Of a stretch of 64,000 nucleotides of DNA, positions 3,245 to 55,069 are shown one piece after another. The notes beneath the pieces are model-generated. The model worked only from the letters and a program-made list of their open reading frames with translations. It was not told the DNA's origin and searched no databases. The DNA is from a phage. Location of the stretch: NCBI GenBank assembly GCA_020381345.1, contig GCA_020381345.1_3636.1; one strand, given 5' to 3'. Made by a program: the position numbers and the translations under genes. How positions within the stretch are numbered: the stretch's first letter is position 1; every line of letters starts with the position of its first letter.

Positions 3245-3436
3245 ATGAATACTGAACAAGTTAGAAAGGTATTGGCGGTACTGCGTTATCATAATCATAG
3301 AAAGGTCATAGACGATCCTGATTATGTAGATTCAAGCCTGGAAGAAGACACGCTACAAGCTATCAGCCATATGCAAGAATTGCTTAAGCGCATGACAGAG
3401 AAAAACCGACCGGACTACATAGGGGGTAAAATATGA
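3245..3436 (+). CDS. hypothetical protein (63 aa)
   Basis: ORF with RBS AAGGGAG upstream. Confidence 0.5.
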   Translation: MNTEQVRKVLAVLRYHNHRKVIDDPDYVDSSLEEDTLQAISHMQELLKRMTEKNRPDYIGGKI

Positions 3437-23426: not shown

Positions 23427-24446
23427 TCATTTACCACAGATCTCTTTGTATGCTGCTTCCACTATGCTAAACACTTCAGGTCTGTAGTGAAAGAATTCAG
23501 TGCTTCCACTAAATGCTTTAGAGAAGTTTATTTTATACTTATTGAAGGCTTCATGCACAGATTTTTCTACACTCAGTATGTTTTCAGTCGATCCGCCCCA
23601 TGTTTTTACTATGTGGAGATCATAAATACCTGCACCAGCCTTCTTGGATGCTCTTAATATCCTTCCCTTCCTCGCTTCTACATTGACGCTCACACCGATC
23701 TTCATAAGTGTTGGCGCTTCTAAGTTATCAACCATGAGGTAAAGCTTCCCATAGTTGTGAGATAAGAAACCGTTTTTGGCACATTTAGGGCATCCACGAC
23801 CAGACAGGTGGCAAGAAGGTGTCTGGGTGAAGTGATTTCCACAAGTGTTGCAGATTATCTCTACCTTATCTTCGCAAGTCATATAATCTATAAAAGAGTA
23901 GTCATATTTATCGCCATGGATTTCTTTGGCTCTTTCTATGAATTCAGGGCCTTTATTCCTTTTTGCTGCGCTAATGAGTTTACTACACTCAGGGCACCCT
24001 TGGCCTTTCAAATGGTTAGATGGGGATTGCAAGAACACTCCGTGCTCAGGGCATACAATTTTTACAGGAGTTTTATAGTTAACATATCCAACCTTAGAAT
24101 AATCATAGGTGTCACCGTGGATTTTTACAAATTTTTTGATAATATCACTAGAATCGTTTCTAAGCTTATTGCCTACTGGCACTCTACCACACTTAGGACA
24201 CCCACTACCGTCAAGGGTATGATGTCCAGCGATCTGCGTAAACTCACCATGAACAGGGCATACAATTACAACCTTACTTTTAGCAGTTTTATATACGGTT
24301 TTTGAATAGTCATATTTATCGCCATGTACTTCTCTAGCTCTTTTTGTAAATTCTTCAGTCGTAAGTTGTTTTCCTCTAGGCATCTTTGATCCCTCTTGGT
24401 TCTCATAGATTAGCCAAGTATGCCACATCCTTGTGGCTTCTGTCAA
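23427..24446 (-). CDS. free-standing endonuclease-like protein with three zinc-ribbon repeats and GIY-YIG-like C-terminal domain
   Basis: Three ~50-aa repeats HGDKYDYS..CPxHGxF..GxGCPKC; C-terminal GKLYLMVDN..MKIGVSVNVEARKGR; inserted between nrdD and nrdG; likely start at internal MPRGK. Confidence 0.55.
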   Translation of the reverse strand: MTEATRMWHTWLIYENQEGSKMPRGKQLTTEEFTKRAREVHGDKYDYSKTVYKTAKSKVVIVCPVHGEFTQIAGHHTLDGSGCPKCGRVPVGNKLRNDSSDIIKKFVKIHGDTYDYSKVGYVNYKTPVKIVCPEHGVFLQSPSNHLKGQGCPECSKLISAAKRNKGPEFIERAKEIHGDKYDYSFIDYMTCEDKVEIICNTCGNHFTQTPSCHLSGRGCPKCAKNGFLSHNYGKLYLMVDNLEAPTLMKIGVSVNVEARKGRILRASKKAGAGIYDLHIVKTWGGSTENILSVEKSVHEAFNKYKINFSKAFSGSTEFFHYRPEVFSIVEAAYKEICGK

Positions 24447-24449
24447 GTA

Positions 24450-25412
24450 TCAGCAACTACAACTTCCATAGTGCTTAACCCGTTCTATAACTTCCGCTTG
24501 CTTACCTTTATTGTAAGGACGGGAGTTAGGACTGGAAAGGTATCCAGACACACGTCGAATTACACTGATCGTTCCCTCTTCATGGTTTCCACACTCTGGA
24601 CATACAAAGCCTCTAGCTGTTGCACTGAACTCACCAGAGAAACCACACTTGAGACATTTATCCACAGGCTGGTTGATACCAAAATACATAATGTGTTTAT
24701 ATCCGAAATCAACAAGAGCTTCCAAAGCATCTAAGTTGTTTTTCAGATTTGGTGTCTCTACGTATCCGATGTTGCCACCAGAGGAGATCATAGCAAAACC
24801 TTCCTCATACTCCCACTTATCAAAAGGAGAGCTATTGATCCATACTGGCTGATGGAAACTGTTGGTGAGATATTCATGCTCGTGCTTCAACACTTCAGGA
24901 TATTCACGATCCAGACAGGTTGCAGCTTTATAGCATAGACTCTCAGAAGGGGTGCCGTACAAGCTAAACGCTAGTCTACTTTCCTTCTTGTATCTCTCAC
25001 AAGCATCTCTCATGTGCTGAAGTATTCCAAGAGCTAAAGCCTTGTCACCCTCCCTGCCCAAAATCTGACAGGTTTCATACACACCAATATACCCAATACT
25101 GATGGAAGCGTACCCGTCATAGAAGAGTTTATCAATACTCTCTTCAGGGTCCAGGCGAGCAAGAGCGCCTTCACACCACATGATAGGGTTCTGCCCTGCC
25201 TTTGTCCCTTTTAGACGATTAACCCTTACAAGGTGAGCCTCGTATGCAAGATCCAGGTATTCGTCAAGAACTGCAAAGAAATCAACACCTTCCGTCTTAG
25301 CTTTTGCCGCAATCATTGGCAAGTTAAGGCTAACAACACCCAAGTTGAATCTGCCAAGGTATTTCTCCTCGCCTGTTACAGGGTCGCTATATTTCGATAA
25401 GAAACTTCTACA
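24450..25412 (-). CDS. nrdD: anaerobic ribonucleoside-triphosphate reductase NrdD, exon 3 of 3
   Basis: Starts CRSFLSKY and ends with glycyl-radical motif RRVSGYL; the track prefix MDLRTTLNIM is intron read-through. Confidence 0.8.
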   Translation of the reverse strand, partial: CRSFLSKYSDPVTGEEKYLGRFNLGVVSLNLPMIAAKAKTEGVDFFAVLDEYLDLAYEAHLVRVNRLKGTKAGQNPIMWCEGALARLDPEESIDKLFYDGYASISIGYIGVYETCQILGREGDKALALGILQHMRDACERYKKESRLAFSLYGTPSESLCYKAATCLDREYPEVLKHEHEYLTNSFHQPVWINSSPFDKWEYEEGFAMISSGGNIGYVETPNLKNNLDALEALVDFGYKHIMYFGINQPVDKCLKCGFSGEFSATARGFVCPECGNHEEGTISVIRRVSGYLSSPNSRPYNKGKQAEVIERVKHYGSCSC

Positions 25413-26174
25413 CATTATGTTCAGGGTGGTTCGCAAGTCCACCCCCGCACCTTTACGTGCTGCTGCATGTTCCCATGCAGATCAGACTATATCTTCACAC
25501 TTAGTGTGTCTACCATTTCGAGTGTCATCGGCTTACACCCTACACCGCTACATTCATCACGGTTAGTCGTTAGGCATTTCGTAACAGAACTCGTAATCAT
25601 AGTTATTAGGCGCACCACGTTTCAGGATAGCAGATATTCTTTTTCTATCCACTCCTAAAACATCAGCACAACATCTCAGACTTTTAAAGTGGAAAACCTC
25701 ACCAGTTAATTTGTTGGTGGCTTTCACACCGTGGCATCTTGTGTAAAAAGCATAACAGTTGTTGTTGTATCCTTCTTGCGTATTGTCTGGGCAAGCTCCC
25801 CACTCAAGGTTGTATACACTGTTATCTTTCCTGTTGTCCCCTTTGTGCTTAACATAGGGTAAATTGTCTGGATTTGGTAAGAACGCTTCAGCAACAAGTC
25901 TGTGAACCCTTAGGCAAACAGTCTTTTTGTTCTTGCGTATCCTAACAAGACGGTAACCTGTGTTTATCTCTTCCCACGAATGAATAATTCTTTCATTTTC
26001 GTAGCGGGTGCAATAAACATTGCCCATCTCGTCAATTTCATAACCTTCAAAATCACGAATTTGTTTTCTCATTTCAGGACTCCTCTTGGTCAGGAGTTCT
26101 GTTACGTTTAGCACGGGATTGTCCGTTCTGGAGTTTCCCCGTTTAGATAGATTTTACATGAGCAGTTATAGTTT
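25413..26174 (-). mobile_element. group I intron (nrdD intron 2) carrying an HNH homing endonuclease ORF
   Basis: 762-bp insertion between in-frame exons; exon ends in U and intron ends in G; contains CTAAACGGGG and ACAATCCCGTGCTAAA elements and a 3' block GATATAGTCTGATCTGCATGGGAACATGCAGC. Confidence 0.7.
25563..26072 (-). CDS. HNH homing endonuclease (intron-encoded, about 169 aa)
   Basis: HNH region RVHRLVAEAF..KHKGDNRKDNSVYNLEWG; RBS AGGAG before internal ATG; frame differs from nrdD. Confidence 0.7.
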   Translation of the reverse strand: MRKQIRDFEGYEIDEMGNVYCTRYENERIIHSWEEINTGYRLVRIRKNKKTVCLRVHRLVAEAFLPNPDNLPYVKHKGDNRKDNSVYNLEWGACPDNTQEGYNNNCYAFYTRCHGVKATNKLTGEVFHFKSLRCCADVLGVDRKRISAILKRGAPNNYDYEFCYEMPND

Positions 26175-26474
26175 ACCCATGCTCGTTACTTTACCATCTG
26201 TCGAGCCTGTCACTTTACGATTTAGTGGAACAGAGACAAAGTCAGGATAAATCCGCTCTGCAGAGCATTCCAGAGCTAATAGTTTCAAATCATAGTTAGG
26301 ATCTCCAGGGTTCATGTTGACACCCTCTTCTAGGAAGAACAGCACTTTAGGGAACACAGGTGTGATACGTTCTTCACCAAGACCCATTTTGTGGACTTTC
26401 AAGTAGTTTTTGGTAATCATTCTACCAAATACTGAGGTGTCCAGACCTAAACTTAATGTGATAAAAGGGGTTTG
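26175..26474 (-). CDS. nrdD: anaerobic ribonucleoside-triphosphate reductase NrdD, exon 2 of 3
   Basis: In-frame translation QTPFITLSLGLDTS..VFPKV..GDPNYDLKLLALECS..KVTGS..SMG matches the middle of E. coli NrdD. Confidence 0.75.
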
Positions 26475-26731
26475 CGGTCCCCACCCTTATGTTTCCACAA
26501 GGCCAGACTATCTCTTGCCTGAAATCACACCGTGTGATTCTTAATCAGACCTCTGCGTTTCGGAATCTTCCATAATCCCTACACCAAAAGGTTAGTCGTT
26601 ACAACCGCCTCACTCCTTGTGAAGCTAGTCACGGGATTGGCATAGCTTTCGCCTTAGCGTTCCCCGTTAGCCAGCGATCAGCTGACCCCTCATACTGAGG
26701 TTAGCAGAGTTTTAAAACGGCCAGTTTGTTA
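26475..26731 (-). ncRNA. group I intron (nrdD intron 1), ORF-less, about 257 nt
   Basis: Separates exon 1 (..NTLTSVNG) from exon 2 (QTPF..); the apparent exon 1 stop TAA is the intron start; GCCGTT near the intron 5' end can pair with exon end AACGGU; 3' end AGATAGTCTGG resembles the other introns. Confidence 0.6.
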
Positions 26732-27592
26732 ACCGTTGACAGAAGTTAACGTATTGATTTGATAGAGCAAAGTCTGCATGCTGTCAAACACGTCTTTATC
26801 TGTCATTTGCATTGCAACAGTCTCAGCATCTGGCAACCAATGTTCCTGGCAAAATTTAAGGTTCTTCTCATAGGTTGCTTCAGCATACTGTGCCAGATAA
26901 TGATCAATATGGCTCATAGTCTGACCACCATATTGAGCACTAGCTACCGCACTAGAGATTTGACTAAGGATTGTTGTTGCAACCCCTATTGACTTCGGCT
27001 TACTGACATGGGCGTTACCAATGTTGAATCCGTTTTCCAACATATCTGGATAATTTACCAAACAACAGTTTGTTAACGGACTGATCAAGTAGTCAAGATC
27101 ATGCACATGGATGAAGCCTCTATTGTGCTCTTCTGAGACACGGTCTGGCAGGATCTGTGTTGATGCAAGGTGTTTGCTAAGGATGCCTGCAAGCAGGTCA
27201 CGATGAGTGTGTACATGATTGGTAGGCTTATTTGCGTTTTCTTTTGTAAATTCATCACAAGTGCGATCCAAGAAGCCACTAATATCTGCAAGCAGTTTTC
27301 CACCTGCCTCTCTGTTATTATCTCTTGTCTGCCTATACTGGATGTATTCTCTGGCTGCACATTTTAAACCCATATCCATAAGAGCGTCTTCAACAAGGAT
27401 ATGGATATTTTTTACAGAGATCGTGCACTGGTCGGTTGGTAGATTGTTAGCAACAACTTCATTAACCGCGCAGGCGATCCGGTAAGCTTCTTCTTCAGTA
27501 TGTCCAGACTCAAGTAAGGCGGACTCTGCCGCCTTGATCACCTTAATTCCGTTATAGAACTCTTCTCTACCGTCCCGTTTTACAACTTTCAC
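26732..27592 (-). CDS. nrdD: anaerobic ribonucleoside-triphosphate reductase NrdD, exon 1 of 3
   Basis: N-terminal ATP-cone-like region MKVVKRDGREE and HRDLLAGI..HDLDY match class III RNR. Confidence 0.8.
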
Positions 27593-50499: not shown

Positions 50500-50574
50500 G
50501 CCCTGTTAGCTTAGTGGATAAAGCAGCGGCCTTCTAAGCCGTTGACACTGGTTCGAGTCCAGTACGGGGTGCCA
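50500..50574 (+). tRNA. tRNA-Arg (anticodon TCT)
   Basis: Hand-folded cloverleaf: acceptor GCCCTGT/ACGGGGT, anticodon loop CTTCTAA, T-loop TTCGAGT, encoded CCA. Confidence 0.7.
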
Positions 50575-50704
50575 AGTTCTTTTTAATGTAGCTTACTTTA
50601 GCAGAGTAAATCTTCGGCAAGTGGCGGTAACCACTTTACCGATACCTCATAGTTAGTGGTGAGAACACTAGCTATTTTAAAAAGAATTTAAATATTAGTA
50701 TTTA

Positions 50705-50792
50705 GGTGAGTTAATTCCGTAGGGGTAGCGGGGCAGACTGTAAATCTGTTATCATTGCGATTCGGGTGGTTCGACTCCATCACTCACCACCA
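50705..50792 (+). tRNA. tRNA-Tyr (anticodon GTA), long variable arm
   Basis: Acceptor GGTGAGT/ACTCACC, anticodon loop CTGTAAA, T-loop TTCGACT, CCA; 88 nt. Confidence 0.6.
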
Positions 50793-50906
50793 AATTTATA
50801 TTTTTAAATGCATAAATCATACAGATAATGGCATTGATATTTATCGTCGTTTATACTAGTCACTAACTGCTCGAAAATCAGTGTCATTATCAGTATTGTT
50901 TATAAA

Positions 50907-50997
50907 AGAGGGTAGGGAGCAATGGTGCTCAAGCGGTCTTGAAAACCGTCCCGTTGAGGATTACTCGATGATGGTTCGATTCCATTATCCTCTGCCA
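50907..50997 (+). tRNA. tRNA-Ser (anticodon TGA), type II
   Basis: Acceptor AGAGGGT/ATCCTCT, anticodon loop CTTGAAA, T-loop TTCGATT, CCA; 91 nt. Confidence 0.6.
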
Positions 50998-51095
50998 TAT
51001 TGTTGACCTTGTAATTAAGCGAAAGCCGGAAGCAGAACCGGATTATCAAATGTTACAGTCGTCATCGCCGACTAGCAACATGGTCAACATACTGA

Positions 51096-51192
51096 GCTAG
51101 GTAAGCCCTTTGGCAAGGGCGAGGATTTTTAATCCTGAAAATAGACGAGGTAGTCGTTGAATACATAGGTGGTTCGATTCCATCACCTAGCA
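51096..51192 (+). tRNA. atypical tRNA-like element (97 nt), anticodon uncertain
   Basis: Acceptor GCTAGGT/ACCTAGC, D-arm GCCC/GGGC, T-arm GGTGG-TTCGATT-CCATC, but non-canonical anticodon arm, 29-nt extra arm, A at position 8, no CCA. Confidence 0.35.
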
Positions 51193-51199
51193 CCTTTTT

Positions 51200-51275
51200 G
51201 CTGATGTAGCACAATTGGTAGTGCAATTGATTTGTAATCAATAGGTTGCAGGTTCAAGTCCTGCCATCAGCACCA
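51200..51275 (+). tRNA. tRNA-Thr (anticodon TGT)
   Basis: Acceptor GCTGATG/CATCAGC, anticodon loop TTTGTAA, T-loop TTCAAGT, CCA. Confidence 0.7.
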
Positions 51276-51276
51276 T

Positions 51277-51351
51277 GGCCCTGTAGCTGGAAGGTTCAAG
51301 CAAGCGACTCATAATCGCCAGACGGTGGTTCAATTCCACCCAGGGCCACCA
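51277..51351 (+). tRNA. tRNA-Met or Ile2 (anticodon CAT)
   Basis: Acceptor GGCCCTG/CAGGGCC, anticodon loop CTCATAA, T-arm GGTGG-TTCAATT-CCACC, CCA; D-stem weak. Confidence 0.55.
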
Positions 51352-51362
51352 AATAATGAATA

Positions 51363-51439
51363 CTCCGCGTAGCTCAGCTTGGTAGAGCGCCTGATTTGGG
51401 ATCAGGAGGTCGAGTGTTCGAATCACTCCGTGGAGACCA
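51363..51439 (+). tRNA. tRNA-Pro (anticodon TGG)
   Basis: Acceptor CTCCGCG/CGTGGAG, D-arm GCTC-AGCTTGGTA-GAGC, anticodon loop TTTGGGA, T-loop TTCGAAT, CCA. Confidence 0.7.
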
Positions 51440-52259: not shown

Positions 52260-52543
52260 GAGTTGCTACACTGTTTATTGTGTGCTTGTTATTATGTGGG
52301 TGTGCAACCAGCGTTGAGAGAGAATACAAGATTGACCCTCCGGATGTAGGAAGGTTGATTGTTAAACCCCCAGAAGGTGCCATGAAACCACCTGCTAAAG
52401 CTATGCCTTTGAAGAAAGGTGCGCCAGATGCAGTGAATTCTGGCATTATGAGGGATAATAATCTGTCTTGTAGCAATGATAGAGCTAAATTGATCATTTT
52501 GCAAGACTATATTAGAACACTGTTTCCAAAGGAGAGAGGTTAA
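52256..52543 (+). CDS. o-spanin (Rz1-like outer-membrane lipoprotein, 95 aa)
   Basis: Signal peptide with lipobox LLLCGC and proline-rich mature region. Confidence 0.6.
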   Translation: MRVATLFIVCLLLCGCATSVEREYKIDPPDVGRLIVKPPEGAMKPPAKAMPLKKGAPDAVNSGIMRDNNLSCSNDRAKLIILQDYIRTLFPKERG

Positions 52544-53285
52544 TGTCTAAGATTTACGGACCGTGTTCTGAAAAGCAGAAGATGATCCTAGAAAACGATG
52601 CAGATATTTTGGTAATCGGCGGTGCCGCAGGGTCTGGCAAGTCGTTCCTCTTGCAGTTGATGCCACTTAAAATTATTGATGACCCCCACAGCTCTGTGGT
52701 TATGTTCCGAAGAACAACCCCGCAGTTGGAAGGTGAGGGTGGACTATGGCCTAAAGCAGTAGCTATTTATAGTGATCTGCCTGAAAACATTAAGCCAAAG
52801 TTCAGAGAGAAGGATCATAAGTTCATTTTTCCACGGTTTGATCCGAACACTGGTAAGTGGGATAGAAGCAAAAAGGGAGCTGTTGTAAAATACTGCCACA
52901 TGGAGTATGTACAAGATAAGCTTAACCATCAGGGGCTTGAGTACACCATGGTTTGCTTCGATGAGGGCACGCAGTTCGAATGGGAGCAGATAGACTATCT
53001 GATGTCTCGTCTGCGATCTCAGTCAAAGTATCCATCAAGAATGGTTATCAGCTGTAACCCCGATTCAGAACACATGCTTGCCAAACTGGTTAGATGGTGG
53101 TTGGACGATGAAGGGTATCCAGATCCGGAGAAATGCGGTAAGAAAAGATATTTTATCCGACGCGACGGTGAATTTATATGGGGAGACTCTAAAGAAGAGT
53201 TGATAGAGAAATACACCACGGTTAACGGACTGGGTGTGGAGATCAAGCCAAGACCGTTGTCATTCTCGTTTATAGGCGCAACCAT
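52543..53285 (+). CDS. terL: terminase large subunit, exon 1 (ATPase domain); 3' boundary approximate
   Basis: Walker A ILVIGGAAGSGKSF and Walker-B-like MVCFDEGTQ; apparent stop at 53290 lies inside the intron. Confidence 0.7.
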
Positions 53286-54264
53286 TAAATGATAGTGGCT
53301 TCGTGCAGAAATGCACGTCGAATAACTTCGTTAATTGCTGGAAAATCCGATTGCTAAACGGACAATCAGCAGCTATAATTACCCTTCCGAACCTGTAGTA
53401 GGGAGATGTTTGAAATGAAAAATTTAGGCTTTTTAGGCTACAATCATTATTGTGCTACATACGATGGCAGAATTTACAGTCTGTATTCTAATAAATTCCT
53501 CCATCCTAATGTGCAGAAAAAGACTGGCTATGCTATGGTAACTTTGTGCGAGGACGGTAAAAAGTTCCAAGTGCTCGTTCACAGAGTGATTGCTATGACT
53601 TTTGTTGATAATGATAATCCCAGCGTGAAAACTCAAGTAAATCACCTTGATGGCAATAAGTTGAATAACGCCGCATGGAACCTTGAGTGGACAACACCTG
53701 AGGAAAACACACATCATGCTCATGAAATGGGACTTAAAAAGGACTATGTCAATAAATACAGGTCCCTAGATGATGCCACTGCTCTTGAAATATGTAGACT
53801 GTTAGAGCAAGGTGCAAGGGTAAAAGACATTTGTGAAATGTTTGGTGTCAATCAACCACTTGTAAGTGGTATAAAGAATGGCTCAGTATACCCAGATATT
53901 TCTAAAGAGTTTAACTTTAGAAAAGTGCCAACCTCTAATAGGATAAGTGAGCACAAGATAATAGGTATCTGCGAGGATCTTAGTGATAGGGTTTTGTGTG
54001 TAAATAAAATAGCTAAGAAGTGGGGCGTAAGTTTTAGTGTTGTTAAAGGAATAAAAGACCGTAAGACTTACACCTATATTTCAAACAATTACGATTGGTA
54101 ATGTAGTTCAACGACTATCCCGAGAGGGAGTAGGGCGCAAGCTTATGGCGCTCGAAAAGCGAAGCACCCTGAGATGGGTGGTGATATAGTCTACTCTGCA
54201 TGGTAACATGCAGCGGCACGTAATGGTGCGGAGGGTGGTGTTGCGACCACCTTTGAATATAAGG
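53286..54264 (+). mobile_element. group I intron in terL carrying an HNH homing endonuclease ORF; boundaries approximate
   Basis: About 980 bp between the ATPase and nuclease halves; contains CTAAACGGACAATC and a 3' block nearly identical to nrdD intron 2. Confidence 0.65.
53406..54101 (+). CDS. HNH homing endonuclease (intron-encoded, 231 aa)
   Basis: HNH motif VLVHRVIAMTF..VNHLDGNKLNNAAWNLEW; own RBS GGGAG. Confidence 0.7.
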   Translation: MFEMKNLGFLGYNHYCATYDGRIYSLYSNKFLHPNVQKKTGYAMVTLCEDGKKFQVLVHRVIAMTFVDNDNPSVKTQVNHLDGNKLNNAAWNLEWTTPEENTHHAHEMGLKKDYVNKYRSLDDATALEICRLLEQGARVKDICEMFGVNQPLVSGIKNGSVYPDISKEFNFRKVPTSNRISEHKIIGICEDLSDRVLCVNKIAKKWGVSFSVVKGIKDRKTYTYISNNYDW

Positions 54265-55069
54265 ATTCGATAATCCTGTCTGCTTGAGAGACAACCCAGA
54301 ATACCTTGCTTTTCTTGAAGGTCTGCCCGAGCTTGAAAAAGCCCAGCTTCTTCATGGCAACTGGTTTGCAAAGCCTGAGGGTGCAAACTATTTTCAAAGA
54401 TCTTTCCTTCGTGATGCCGATAGAGTACCCCTTGGATCAGTATCTTGCAGGGCATGGGATAAGGCAGGAACCGAGAGAACTTCCGGTAATAAATTTCCTG
54501 ACTTTACCGCCAGTGTTAAGGTAAGTAAAGATAGCGACGGCTTTTATTACCTGTCCGGTGATTATTGTCCTGAGAACGTGGATGACGGGAGGTATTCCAC
54601 AGGTCTGGAAGGCAAGTTCTGTAAAAAGGCTGGTGAACGAGATGTGATCATCAGGAAACAGGCGCAGTTTGATGGTGATGATTGTATAATCGTATTCTCT
54701 GTGGACCCCGGTCAGGCAGGTAAGAGTGAGTTCTTAACATCCTCCAGATCCTTGCTCGCCGAAGGGTTTAGGGTTGAAGAAGACCCAATGCCTTCCAACA
54801 AATCTAAACTGACAAGGTTCTCACCTTTTGCCAATCTTGCCCAACAAGGAATGGTTAGGATTGTAAAATCCAGTTTCCATCCTGATACTCTGGAAGCATT
54901 TCTGACTGAACTTGAAAAATTCAACGGGGAAAGATCAACATTTAACAGGAAAGACGACTGGGCCGACTGTGTAGCTTCTGCGATTAATTTCCTGGAGAAA
55001 GAGGAGGTAGCACTTCCTTGTGTGATTCCATCAATCTCATCACCTTCTATGTTCAAGCGTTTTATCTAA
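54265..55069 (+). CDS. terL: terminase large subunit, exon 2 (nuclease domain); 5' boundary approximate
   Basis: Open frame continuous from 54263 with no ATG; acidic residues consistent with a terminase nuclease domain (IIVFSVDPGQAG, DDWADC); track start is TTG. Confidence 0.65.

Follow-up and report, generated by a model that had tools for sequence, protein, structure and literature searches.

Group I introns in nrdD, the gene of the class III ribonucleotide reductase (RNR), are already textbook knowledge from bacteriophage T4, the introns of which were reportedly found to be self-splicing by Gott et al. in 1986. According to PMC1865063, the nrdD intron is one of three group I introns of T4 and is mobile. 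Several introns within one phage RNR gene are described for Twort and A9 in PMC3653736. Single introns at both of the nrdD sites considered here have also been annotated, one in phi92 and the other in BASEL genomes of Vequintavirus. Among the rV5-like phages, the rV5 paper discusses terminase introns only, with a three-segment terminase gene, and our literature search found no paper describing introns in the nrdD gene of these phages. In this study, we analysed a stretch of 64,000 nucleotides (nt) of phage DNA from contig GCA_020381345.1_3636.1 of assembly GCA_020381345.1, which is referred to below as the window. The source phage is an rV5-like coliphage (Vequintavirus), and its nrdD region is 94-98% identical to those of many such genomes. 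Our results suggested that the nrdD gene in the window very probably contains two independent mobile group I introns, both of which would be spliced out to yield a single class III reductase of 707 amino acids (aa).

An earlier sequence-only reading of the window had proposed that three minus-strand frames join into an NrdD protein, with junctions at NG/QTPF and SMG/CRSF (a slash marks the junction in the protein). The three frames were confirmed at the positions of the exons in Table 1, the junctions were found at TSVNG/QTPF and TSMG/CRSF, and the joined exons encode 707 aa followed by a stop codon. We aligned the joined protein with T4 NrdD (1H78) and found the two to be colinear, without a gap at either junction (E=8.3e-167), so that the alternative of three separate genes was not borne out. 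In addition, 9D3X, an NrdD of 734 aa, could be aligned with the joined protein from residue 1 (E=1.8e-163). The Pfam domains recovered in the joined protein were NRDD (PF13597, E=2.8e-160), Gly_radical (PF01228, E=2e-23) and ATP-cone (PF03477, E=1.3e-12, residues 2-91). The cysteine of MGCRSF aligns with Cys290 of T4, as counted on the T4 alignment, and the second insertion lies directly 5' of its codon; the Cys4 zinc-site motif CLKC...CPEC is also present. Judged by its sequence, the joined product would thus be a class III NrdD with an NRDD domain, the radical cysteine, a glycyl-radical domain, a zinc site and an ATP-cone. The GTG start codon is preceded by GGAGAG at a distance of 5 nt, and both the ATP-cone match and the alignment of 9D3X from residue 1 support it.

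The relatives of this phage carry different insertions, and natural empty sites therefore fix the boundaries independently. In phiWec191, which is without the first insertion, the end of exon 1 and the start of exon 2 abut exactly at the predicted junction 1, while in RudolfGeigy, SophiaRose and MaxBurger, which are without the second insertion, the exons abut exactly at junction 2. Because the intron ends and the exon ends have no base in common, these boundaries are unambiguous. They also place a U at the end of the exon before each insertion and a G (omega G) at the 3' end of each, in agreement with the sequence-only reading. In the allele without intron 1, the last codon of exon 1 is GGG and not GGU, and the splice-site U is therefore missing there. 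The lengths of the three exons are all multiples of three, which means that both interruptions fall between codons (phase 0), and the exact removal of either insertion would restore an uninterrupted, conserved nrdD gene. The earlier description of the insertions themselves also held: the first is compact (257 nt) and has no open reading frame (ORF) on the gene strand, and the second carries an HNH endonuclease ORF of 169 aa in its own frame with its own ribosome-binding site, AGGAG, 7 nt upstream of the ATG. Inteins occur in phage RNR genes, according to PMC3653736, and the interruptions might in principle be inteins or other elements acting by recoding at the protein or translational level. 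However, the exon frame reads UAA immediately past junction 1 and meets another UAA two codons past junction 2, from which it follows that the insertions are not inteins; no Hint/intein domain was found by Pfam, and the insertions covary at the RNA level, as described below. Protein-level or recoding elements are thus hardly conceivable at this locus.

Table 1. Positions of the nrdD exons, the predicted introns and their parts, and a neighbouring gene in the window
Feature	Position	Strand	Description
nrdD exon 1	26732..27592	-	codons 1-287; 861 nt; GTG start at 27592 overlaps grx stop; holds ATP-cone
Intron 1	26475..26731	-	257 nt; predicted group I intron without ORF; follows codon 287 in phase 0 (NG/QTPF)
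Internal guide sequence of intron 1, GCCGUU	26716..26721	-	predicted to pair with exon AACGGU, U.G at splice site; read from sequence and minimum free energy fold
Two extra hairpins of intron 1	26669..26700	-	predicted between P3 5' strand (26704-26709) and P4 (26662-26667)
nrdD exon 2	26175..26474	-	codons 288-387; 300 nt
Intron 2	25413..26174	-	762 nt; predicted group I intron of T4 nrdD type; phase 0, after codon 387
P10 5' strand of intron 2, CUAUA	26167-26171	-	predicted to pair with first five bases of exon 3 (UGUAG)
Internal guide sequence of intron 2, GCUCAUG	26157..26163	-	predicted to pair with exon CAUGGGU, U.G at splice site
Hairpin ACUCCU-GACCAAG-AGGAGU	26079..26097	-	6 bp; encloses Shine-Dalgarno sequence of HNH ORF; read from sequence
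HNH ORF of intron 2, putative homing endonuclease	25563..26072	-	169 aa; ATG 26072, stop 25563-25565; in P6 loop
3' ribozyme half of intron 2	25413..25587	-	P6-3', P7, P7.1, P7.2, P3-3', P8, J8/7-P7', P9, P9.1, P9.2, terminal G
nrdD exon 3	24450..25412	-	codons 388-707; 963 nt; catalytic Cys, zinc-finger cysteines, glycyl-radical domain
Exon 3 tract segregating with intron 2	25353..25412	-	co-conversion-like footprint; includes P10 partner UGUAG
Free-standing endonuclease-like gene	23427-24446	-	339 aa; repeated zinc-finger motifs and T5orf172/MUG113 domain; PHROG 681 'endonuclease', E=3.5e-67

The assignment of both insertions to the group I introns, as the sequence-only reading had it, is supported by a P1 helix with a U.G pair and an internal guide sequence, a conserved P3-P9 core, the J8/7-P7 segment and the terminal omega G, and by covariation in both. 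In a covariance-model search, each insertion gave a full-length match to Rfam RF00028 (intron 2: 35.3 bits, E=6e-7 when the region was searched alone and 2.5e-5 in the whole window; intron 1: 29.2 bits, E=4e-5 when searched alone). Both scores lie below the gathering score of 50 bits, and the introns were seen in E-value mode only. Both introns would leave the pre-mRNA by two-step transesterification initiated by guanosine. In the Michel-Westhof classification, IA2-like phage introns of the T4 nrdD type are marked by two extra helices, P7.1 and P7.2, that separate P7 from the 3' strand of P3. By this feature, intron 2 and intron 1 would both be IA2-like.

For intron 2, we assigned the helices P1, P10, P3, P4, P5, P6, P7, P7.1, P7.2, P8, P9, P9.1 and P9.2. 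Covariation was tested with seven ORF-trimmed homologues, those of the window, VEcB, phi92, Vibrio phage F89, phiS, T4 and F2. In this set, 93.9% of the cells in the fold were paired, compared with 33-44% when the partners were slid by 1-3 columns; both partners had changed in 36 of the 74 pairs, and not one of the observed measures was reached in any of 500 shuffles. P7.1 (97% of cells paired, 3 pairs changed on both sides) and P7.2 (95%, 4 pairs) contributed to this signal, and the U.G pair at the splice site was invariant in all seven homologues. P7 is invariant as well, with GACUA/UAGUC in both introns, and for that reason its pairing is uninformative for covariation. The J8/7-P7 segment of intron 2 is GAAGAUAUAGUCUGA, identical to that of the T4 nrdD intron. 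Blast results also revealed that the 5' and 3' parts of intron 2 are homologous to numerous phage group I introns, among them the nrdD introns of T4 and F2; identity to the T4 and F2 introns was about 80% in the BLAST-aligned segments and 66-73% over the whole aligned core.

Intron 1 shows the helices P4-P6, P7 (GACUA/UAGUC), P7.1, P7.2, P8 and P9, and its P7.1 and P7.2 hairpins were recovered in minimum free energy (MFE) folds. Its J8/7 segment is AAGAGAUAGUCUGG. A motif search of IMG/VR gave a family of 24 loci, and eight members were used for RNAalifold and MFE folds. In the RNAalifold consensus, 27 of the 40 pairs were compensatory; the six pairs of P3 were intact in all eight sequences, with five of the six changed on both sides, and two hairpins between P3 and P4 were obtained together with P4, P5, P6 and P9. 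The same architecture, including these two hairpins, appeared in seven of the eight independent MFE folds. P3 is CUCUGC/GCAGAG in the window and CUCUCC/GGAGAG in the ORF-bearing variant of MaxBurger, with other pairs in metagenomic relatives. A different 5' strand of P3 proposed by Rfam (CGCUGGC) was rejected, because the MaxBurger variant cannot form it while CUCUGC/GCAGAG covaries in 8/8 sequences. We also suspected that MAFFT had mis-registered P3 in the family alignment (A2), and this suspicion was dropped because RNAalifold pairs all of the sequences in the given columns. From sequence and predicted folds, intron 1 belongs to a widespread family of phage introns in which P3 and P4 are separated by two hairpins. 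Our literature search gave no published name for hairpins at this position and no description of such an arrangement.

These folds bear on a scenario in which the insertions stay unspliced and NrdD is made as two or three polypeptides that assemble into an active enzyme. Such an arrangement has a precedent in Aeromonas phage Aeh1, where NrdA is divided by the HNH gene mobE and is reported to be functional (PMC7344957). The same paper found one HNH-associated insertion, in phage CB7, to be retained at the RNA level. Start codons for the fragments were also found by gene callers; one of these is the AUG that the final three bases of the intron make up directly upstream of exon 3. However, the inserted DNA of Aeh1 is without a ribozyme, whereas the ribozyme cores of both insertions in the window are complete and held by compensatory substitutions, which would be pointless without splicing. 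Moreover, there is no Shine-Dalgarno sequence before exon 2 or exon 3, and without splicing the protein chain would be broken directly in front of the catalytic cysteine and inside the conserved NGQTPF segment. We consider this scenario extremely unlikely. A second hypothesis is that one or both introns are splicing-defective relics and that nrdD is a pseudogene, a loss that the aerobic NrdAB of the same phage could make tolerable. In favour of this, intron 1 is without an endonuclease gene, its P10 is very short, its J8/7 is the variant AAGAGAUAGUC in place of AAGAUAUAGUC, and neither intron reaches the Rfam gathering score. Against decay, the nrdD exons are intact, with 97-100% protein identity to uninterrupted alleles, and nrdG and grx are intact alongside. 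In addition, intron 1 is >99% identical in 14 records with all of its helices intact, and its J8/7 variant is common to the ORF-bearing form. The relic hypothesis is therefore very unlikely, and splicing of both introns from a functional nrdD remains our reading of the locus.

Several observations suggested that intron 2 is a homing element, active now or in the recent past. Its ORF product of 169 aa can be aligned with I-HmuI (1U3E) from residue 3 to residue 166 (E=1.8e-7), contains the motif VKHKGDNRKDNSVYNLEW and matches PHROG 59 'HNH endonuclease' (E=2.8e-32); by motif and overall similarity, it would be an I-HmuI-like homing endonuclease. The location of the ORF in P6 was shown by alignment with the ORF-less introns of phi92 and of a Vequintavirus-like contig (L027), and its last eight codons and stop codon overlap P6-3', J6/7 and P7. 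T4 delays the translation of I-TevI, so that ribosomes spare the ribozyme. The hairpin that encloses the Shine-Dalgarno sequence of the HNH ORF may by analogy resemble this arrangement; in VEcB, the corresponding stem has covaried to CUCCC/GGGGG. The L027 intron is 251 nt long and near-identical to intron 2 of the window, but its P6 is a small T4-like hairpin, suggesting that the endonuclease cassette entered a pre-existing intron. In a mixed infection, the endonuclease would cut or nick intron-less nrdD alleles, and repair would then copy in intron 2 together with about 50 nt of the downstream exon. Both insertion sites, NG/QTPF and MG/CRSF, encode highly conserved NrdD peptides, as expected for targets of homing endonucleases.

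The start of exon 3 has a footprint of this kind. In comparison with the window, alleles that lack intron 2 show 11-12 differences in the first 30 nt of exon 3 and 5-6 in the following 30, while alleles with intron 2 show none over the 60 nt; there is no comparable tract in the 5' flank. The empty allele of RudolfGeigy has the sequence TGCCGGAGTTTTC, and the exon sequence associated with the intron is TGTAGAAGTTTC. The first 17 nt of the tract are also nearly identical in phi92, although nrdD of phi92 is otherwise only about 65% identical. This pattern is in agreement with co-conversion on one side in the course of homing, combined with selection for P10, a direction and mechanism that we infer from the alleles compared. 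Intron 1, being ORF-less, was probably kept by vertical descent or else mobilised in trans, which would use the endonuclease of the ORF-bearing variant at the same site in other rV5-like phages.

Some points weigh against the reading of two spliced, mobile introns. First, the Rfam scan of the window at the gathering threshold reported only tRNAs and neither intron; this score, however, is the cut-off of one generic model and no structural criterion. Second, P10 of intron 1 has at most 2-3 bp. Third, the Pfam matches of the HNH ORF (HNH_3, 19.7 bits vs. 24.8, and I-HmuI NUMOD-like) are weak and do not reach the cut-offs. Fourth, the activity and cleavage site of the endonuclease, the mobilisation of intron 1 in trans and splicing itself are inferred from sequence.

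To place the two introns in their population, about 118 full-length Vequintavirus nrdD records were counted. Intron 1 was present in 42, of which 14 have the ORF-less form and 28 an HNH ORF in P8, and intron 2 in 18. About 65 records (including rV5/V5) have neither intron, 35 have intron 1 only, 11 have intron 2 only and 7 have both, compared with about 6.4 expected under independent assortment. Together with the exon 3 tract, this presence/absence polymorphism lends indirect support to homing. The sequence-only reading had called two introns in one gene uncommon; this is true in general but not of phage RNR genes, where the situation is well documented and recurs in those 7 close relatives. 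In exon 1, the 30 nt at 26762-26791, upstream of intron 1, show 0-1 differences between the window and the empty and ORF-bearing alleles and 7 differences from three other carriers of ORF-less intron 1, 241Ecol014PP, RudolfGeigy and SophiaRose, so that the window looks recombinant around junction 1. We also noted that about 18-25 'Campylobacter phage' records (MG0656xx, host Campylobacter jejuni) are 95-100% identical to the E. coli rV5-like region, and that intron 2 of Campylobacter phage C2 is 100% identical to that of the window. The Campylobacter jejuni host labels of these records look doubtful.

Beyond the genus, introns are found at the cysteine site of phi92, VEcB, phiS and Vibrio phage F89 as well. 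A metagenomic phage (IMGVR_UViG_3300033120_000502, L030), with an NrdD only 38-55% identical, carries both intron families at the same two sites. At its cysteine site, the 5' exon ends in GGA, with A instead of the usual U before the intron (guide region UCCCCAUU), and this copy would have either a non-canonical splice-site pair or a defect. The nrdD intron of another metagenomic phage (IMGVR_UViG_3300035501_000986, L019) combines the guide GCUCAUG of the intron 2 type with the two P3-P4 hairpins of the intron 1 type, a hybrid layout that suggests modular exchange between the two families. In the nrdD of L018, an intron of the intron 1 family occupies a third position, near codons 542-567 in the numbering of the window. 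Vibrio phage F89 g2 (L011) has breaks at the equivalents of 222/223 and 387/388 with an HNH gene in each, and an apparent further break at locus position 3288/3289. These breaks indicate that a multiply interrupted nrdD recurs in unrelated phages.

Around the gene, the order on the minus strand is nrdB, grx, nrdD, the free-standing endonuclease gene, a 38-aa ORF and nrdG. The slot between nrdD and nrdG is empty in 241Ecol014PP and RudolfGeigy and holds a 'GIY-YIG nuclease family protein' in SophiaRose; the 339-aa gene in the window could be a further homing element acting on the nrdD locus. Elsewhere in the window, the large terminase gene (52543-55069, plus strand) is also interrupted, with exon 1 at 52543-~53290, an HNH ORF at 53406-54101 and a downstream exon reaching 55069. 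Two sub-threshold RF00028 matches, at 53276-53637 (24.4 bits) and 53975-54213 (34.8 bits), have the appearance of a single intron divided into a 5' and a 3' half, the junctions being approximate, and its P9/P9.1/P9.2 region closely resembles that of nrdD intron 2. A tRNA cluster at 50500-51436 (plus strand) comprises six genes that score above the Rfam gathering cut-off, with a sub-threshold tRNA-Sec-like match at 50907-50993.

These results matter first for annotation. In most GenBank records of these phages, nrdD appears as two or three separate 'genes' accompanied by hypothetical proteins, where the right product would be a three-part join of 707 aa, and this join was annotated in none of the both-intron records whose annotation was examined. 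In many records, the start of nrdD is put at an internal ATG, and the ATP-cone domain is therefore cut off; in several GenBank relatives (L001, L002, L003, L005), this ATG is the one at locus position 821, which lies about 71 codons further downstream. In addition, the locus offers a compact natural system for the study of homing, since all four intron combinations occur in close relatives and both introns occur with and without an ORF. The general understanding of group I introns is left unchanged; what is added is one more well-resolved instance and perhaps a case, in a protein-coding gene, of guide-directed site switching.

The latter arises from the comparison with the T4 nrdD (sunY) intron and its I-TevII gene. 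The T4 intron (L007, 2417-3449), the removal of which gives a 605-aa product, shares with intron 2 the host gene, a homologous core, the identical guide hexamer GCUCAU and the helices P7.1/P7.2, P9, P9.1 and P9.2. However, it interrupts the codon equivalent to 277 (phase 1), at a site 32 nt upstream of the intron 1 site and 110 codons upstream of the intron 2 site, and it carries the GIY-YIG enzyme I-TevII, placed in the P9.1 loop by sequence reading, whereas intron 2 has an HNH gene in P6. The same ribozyme lineage is thus combined with unrelated endonucleases in different loops. The T4-site introns of T4 and F2 are 69% identical to each other, and each is 73-75% identical to a site-2 intron; the 5' exons are AUGAGU at the T4 site and AUGGGU at the cysteine site, and the sites otherwise share little. 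The cysteine-site lineage occurs in rV5-like, phi92-like, Krischvirus and Vibrio phages, and the codon-277 site is occupied in T4-like phages. A tentative explanation, drawn from seven sequences and in our judgement somewhat more doubtful than not, is that one ribozyme lineage with an identical guide came to occupy two nrdD sites, either through RNA-guided reverse splicing or through ectopic insertion followed by selection for P1 compatibility. RNA-guided intron relocation has so far been supported mainly by rDNA introns (PMC3984707).

Among more distant systems, I-HmuI of the SPO1 DNA polymerase intron (1U3E) and the HNH protein of the window are both intron-encoded and similar over their full length, with the HNH His/Asn motif kept, but their identity is low and the host gene and target are different. 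I-HmuI nicks one strand. The nrdE gene of Twort is another RNR large-subunit gene with several group I introns near conserved or functional residues, one of them with an HNH gene, according to PMC3653736, which cites Landthaler et al. 2002. It differs in being of class Ib, in a phage of Gram-positive hosts, with other intron lineages and with self-splicing shown, whereas splicing in the window is predicted. The closest counterparts of intron 2 are found in phi92 (gp192A) and VEcB (Justusliebigvirus), which have the same intron at the same site, TSMG/CRSF, with a core 89% identical. VEcB has the whole intron including the same HNH ORF (about 84% identity), while phi92 has an ORF-less form of 279 nt that has lost the HNH ORF, and its record annotates the join as a 'spliced variant'. 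Both are members of a different phage subfamily, share only about 64-68% identity in NrdD and have a single intron and an empty NG/QTPF site. For intron 1, the counterparts are the BASEL Vequintavirus records of the same genus (RudolfGeigy, MaxBurger and others), in which nrdD is annotated as a two-part join at the intron 1 site. These genomes have one intron only; that of RudolfGeigy is >99% identical to intron 1 of the window, while that of MaxBurger, about 13% divergent in its 5' half, has the loop of P8 filled by an HNH ORF.

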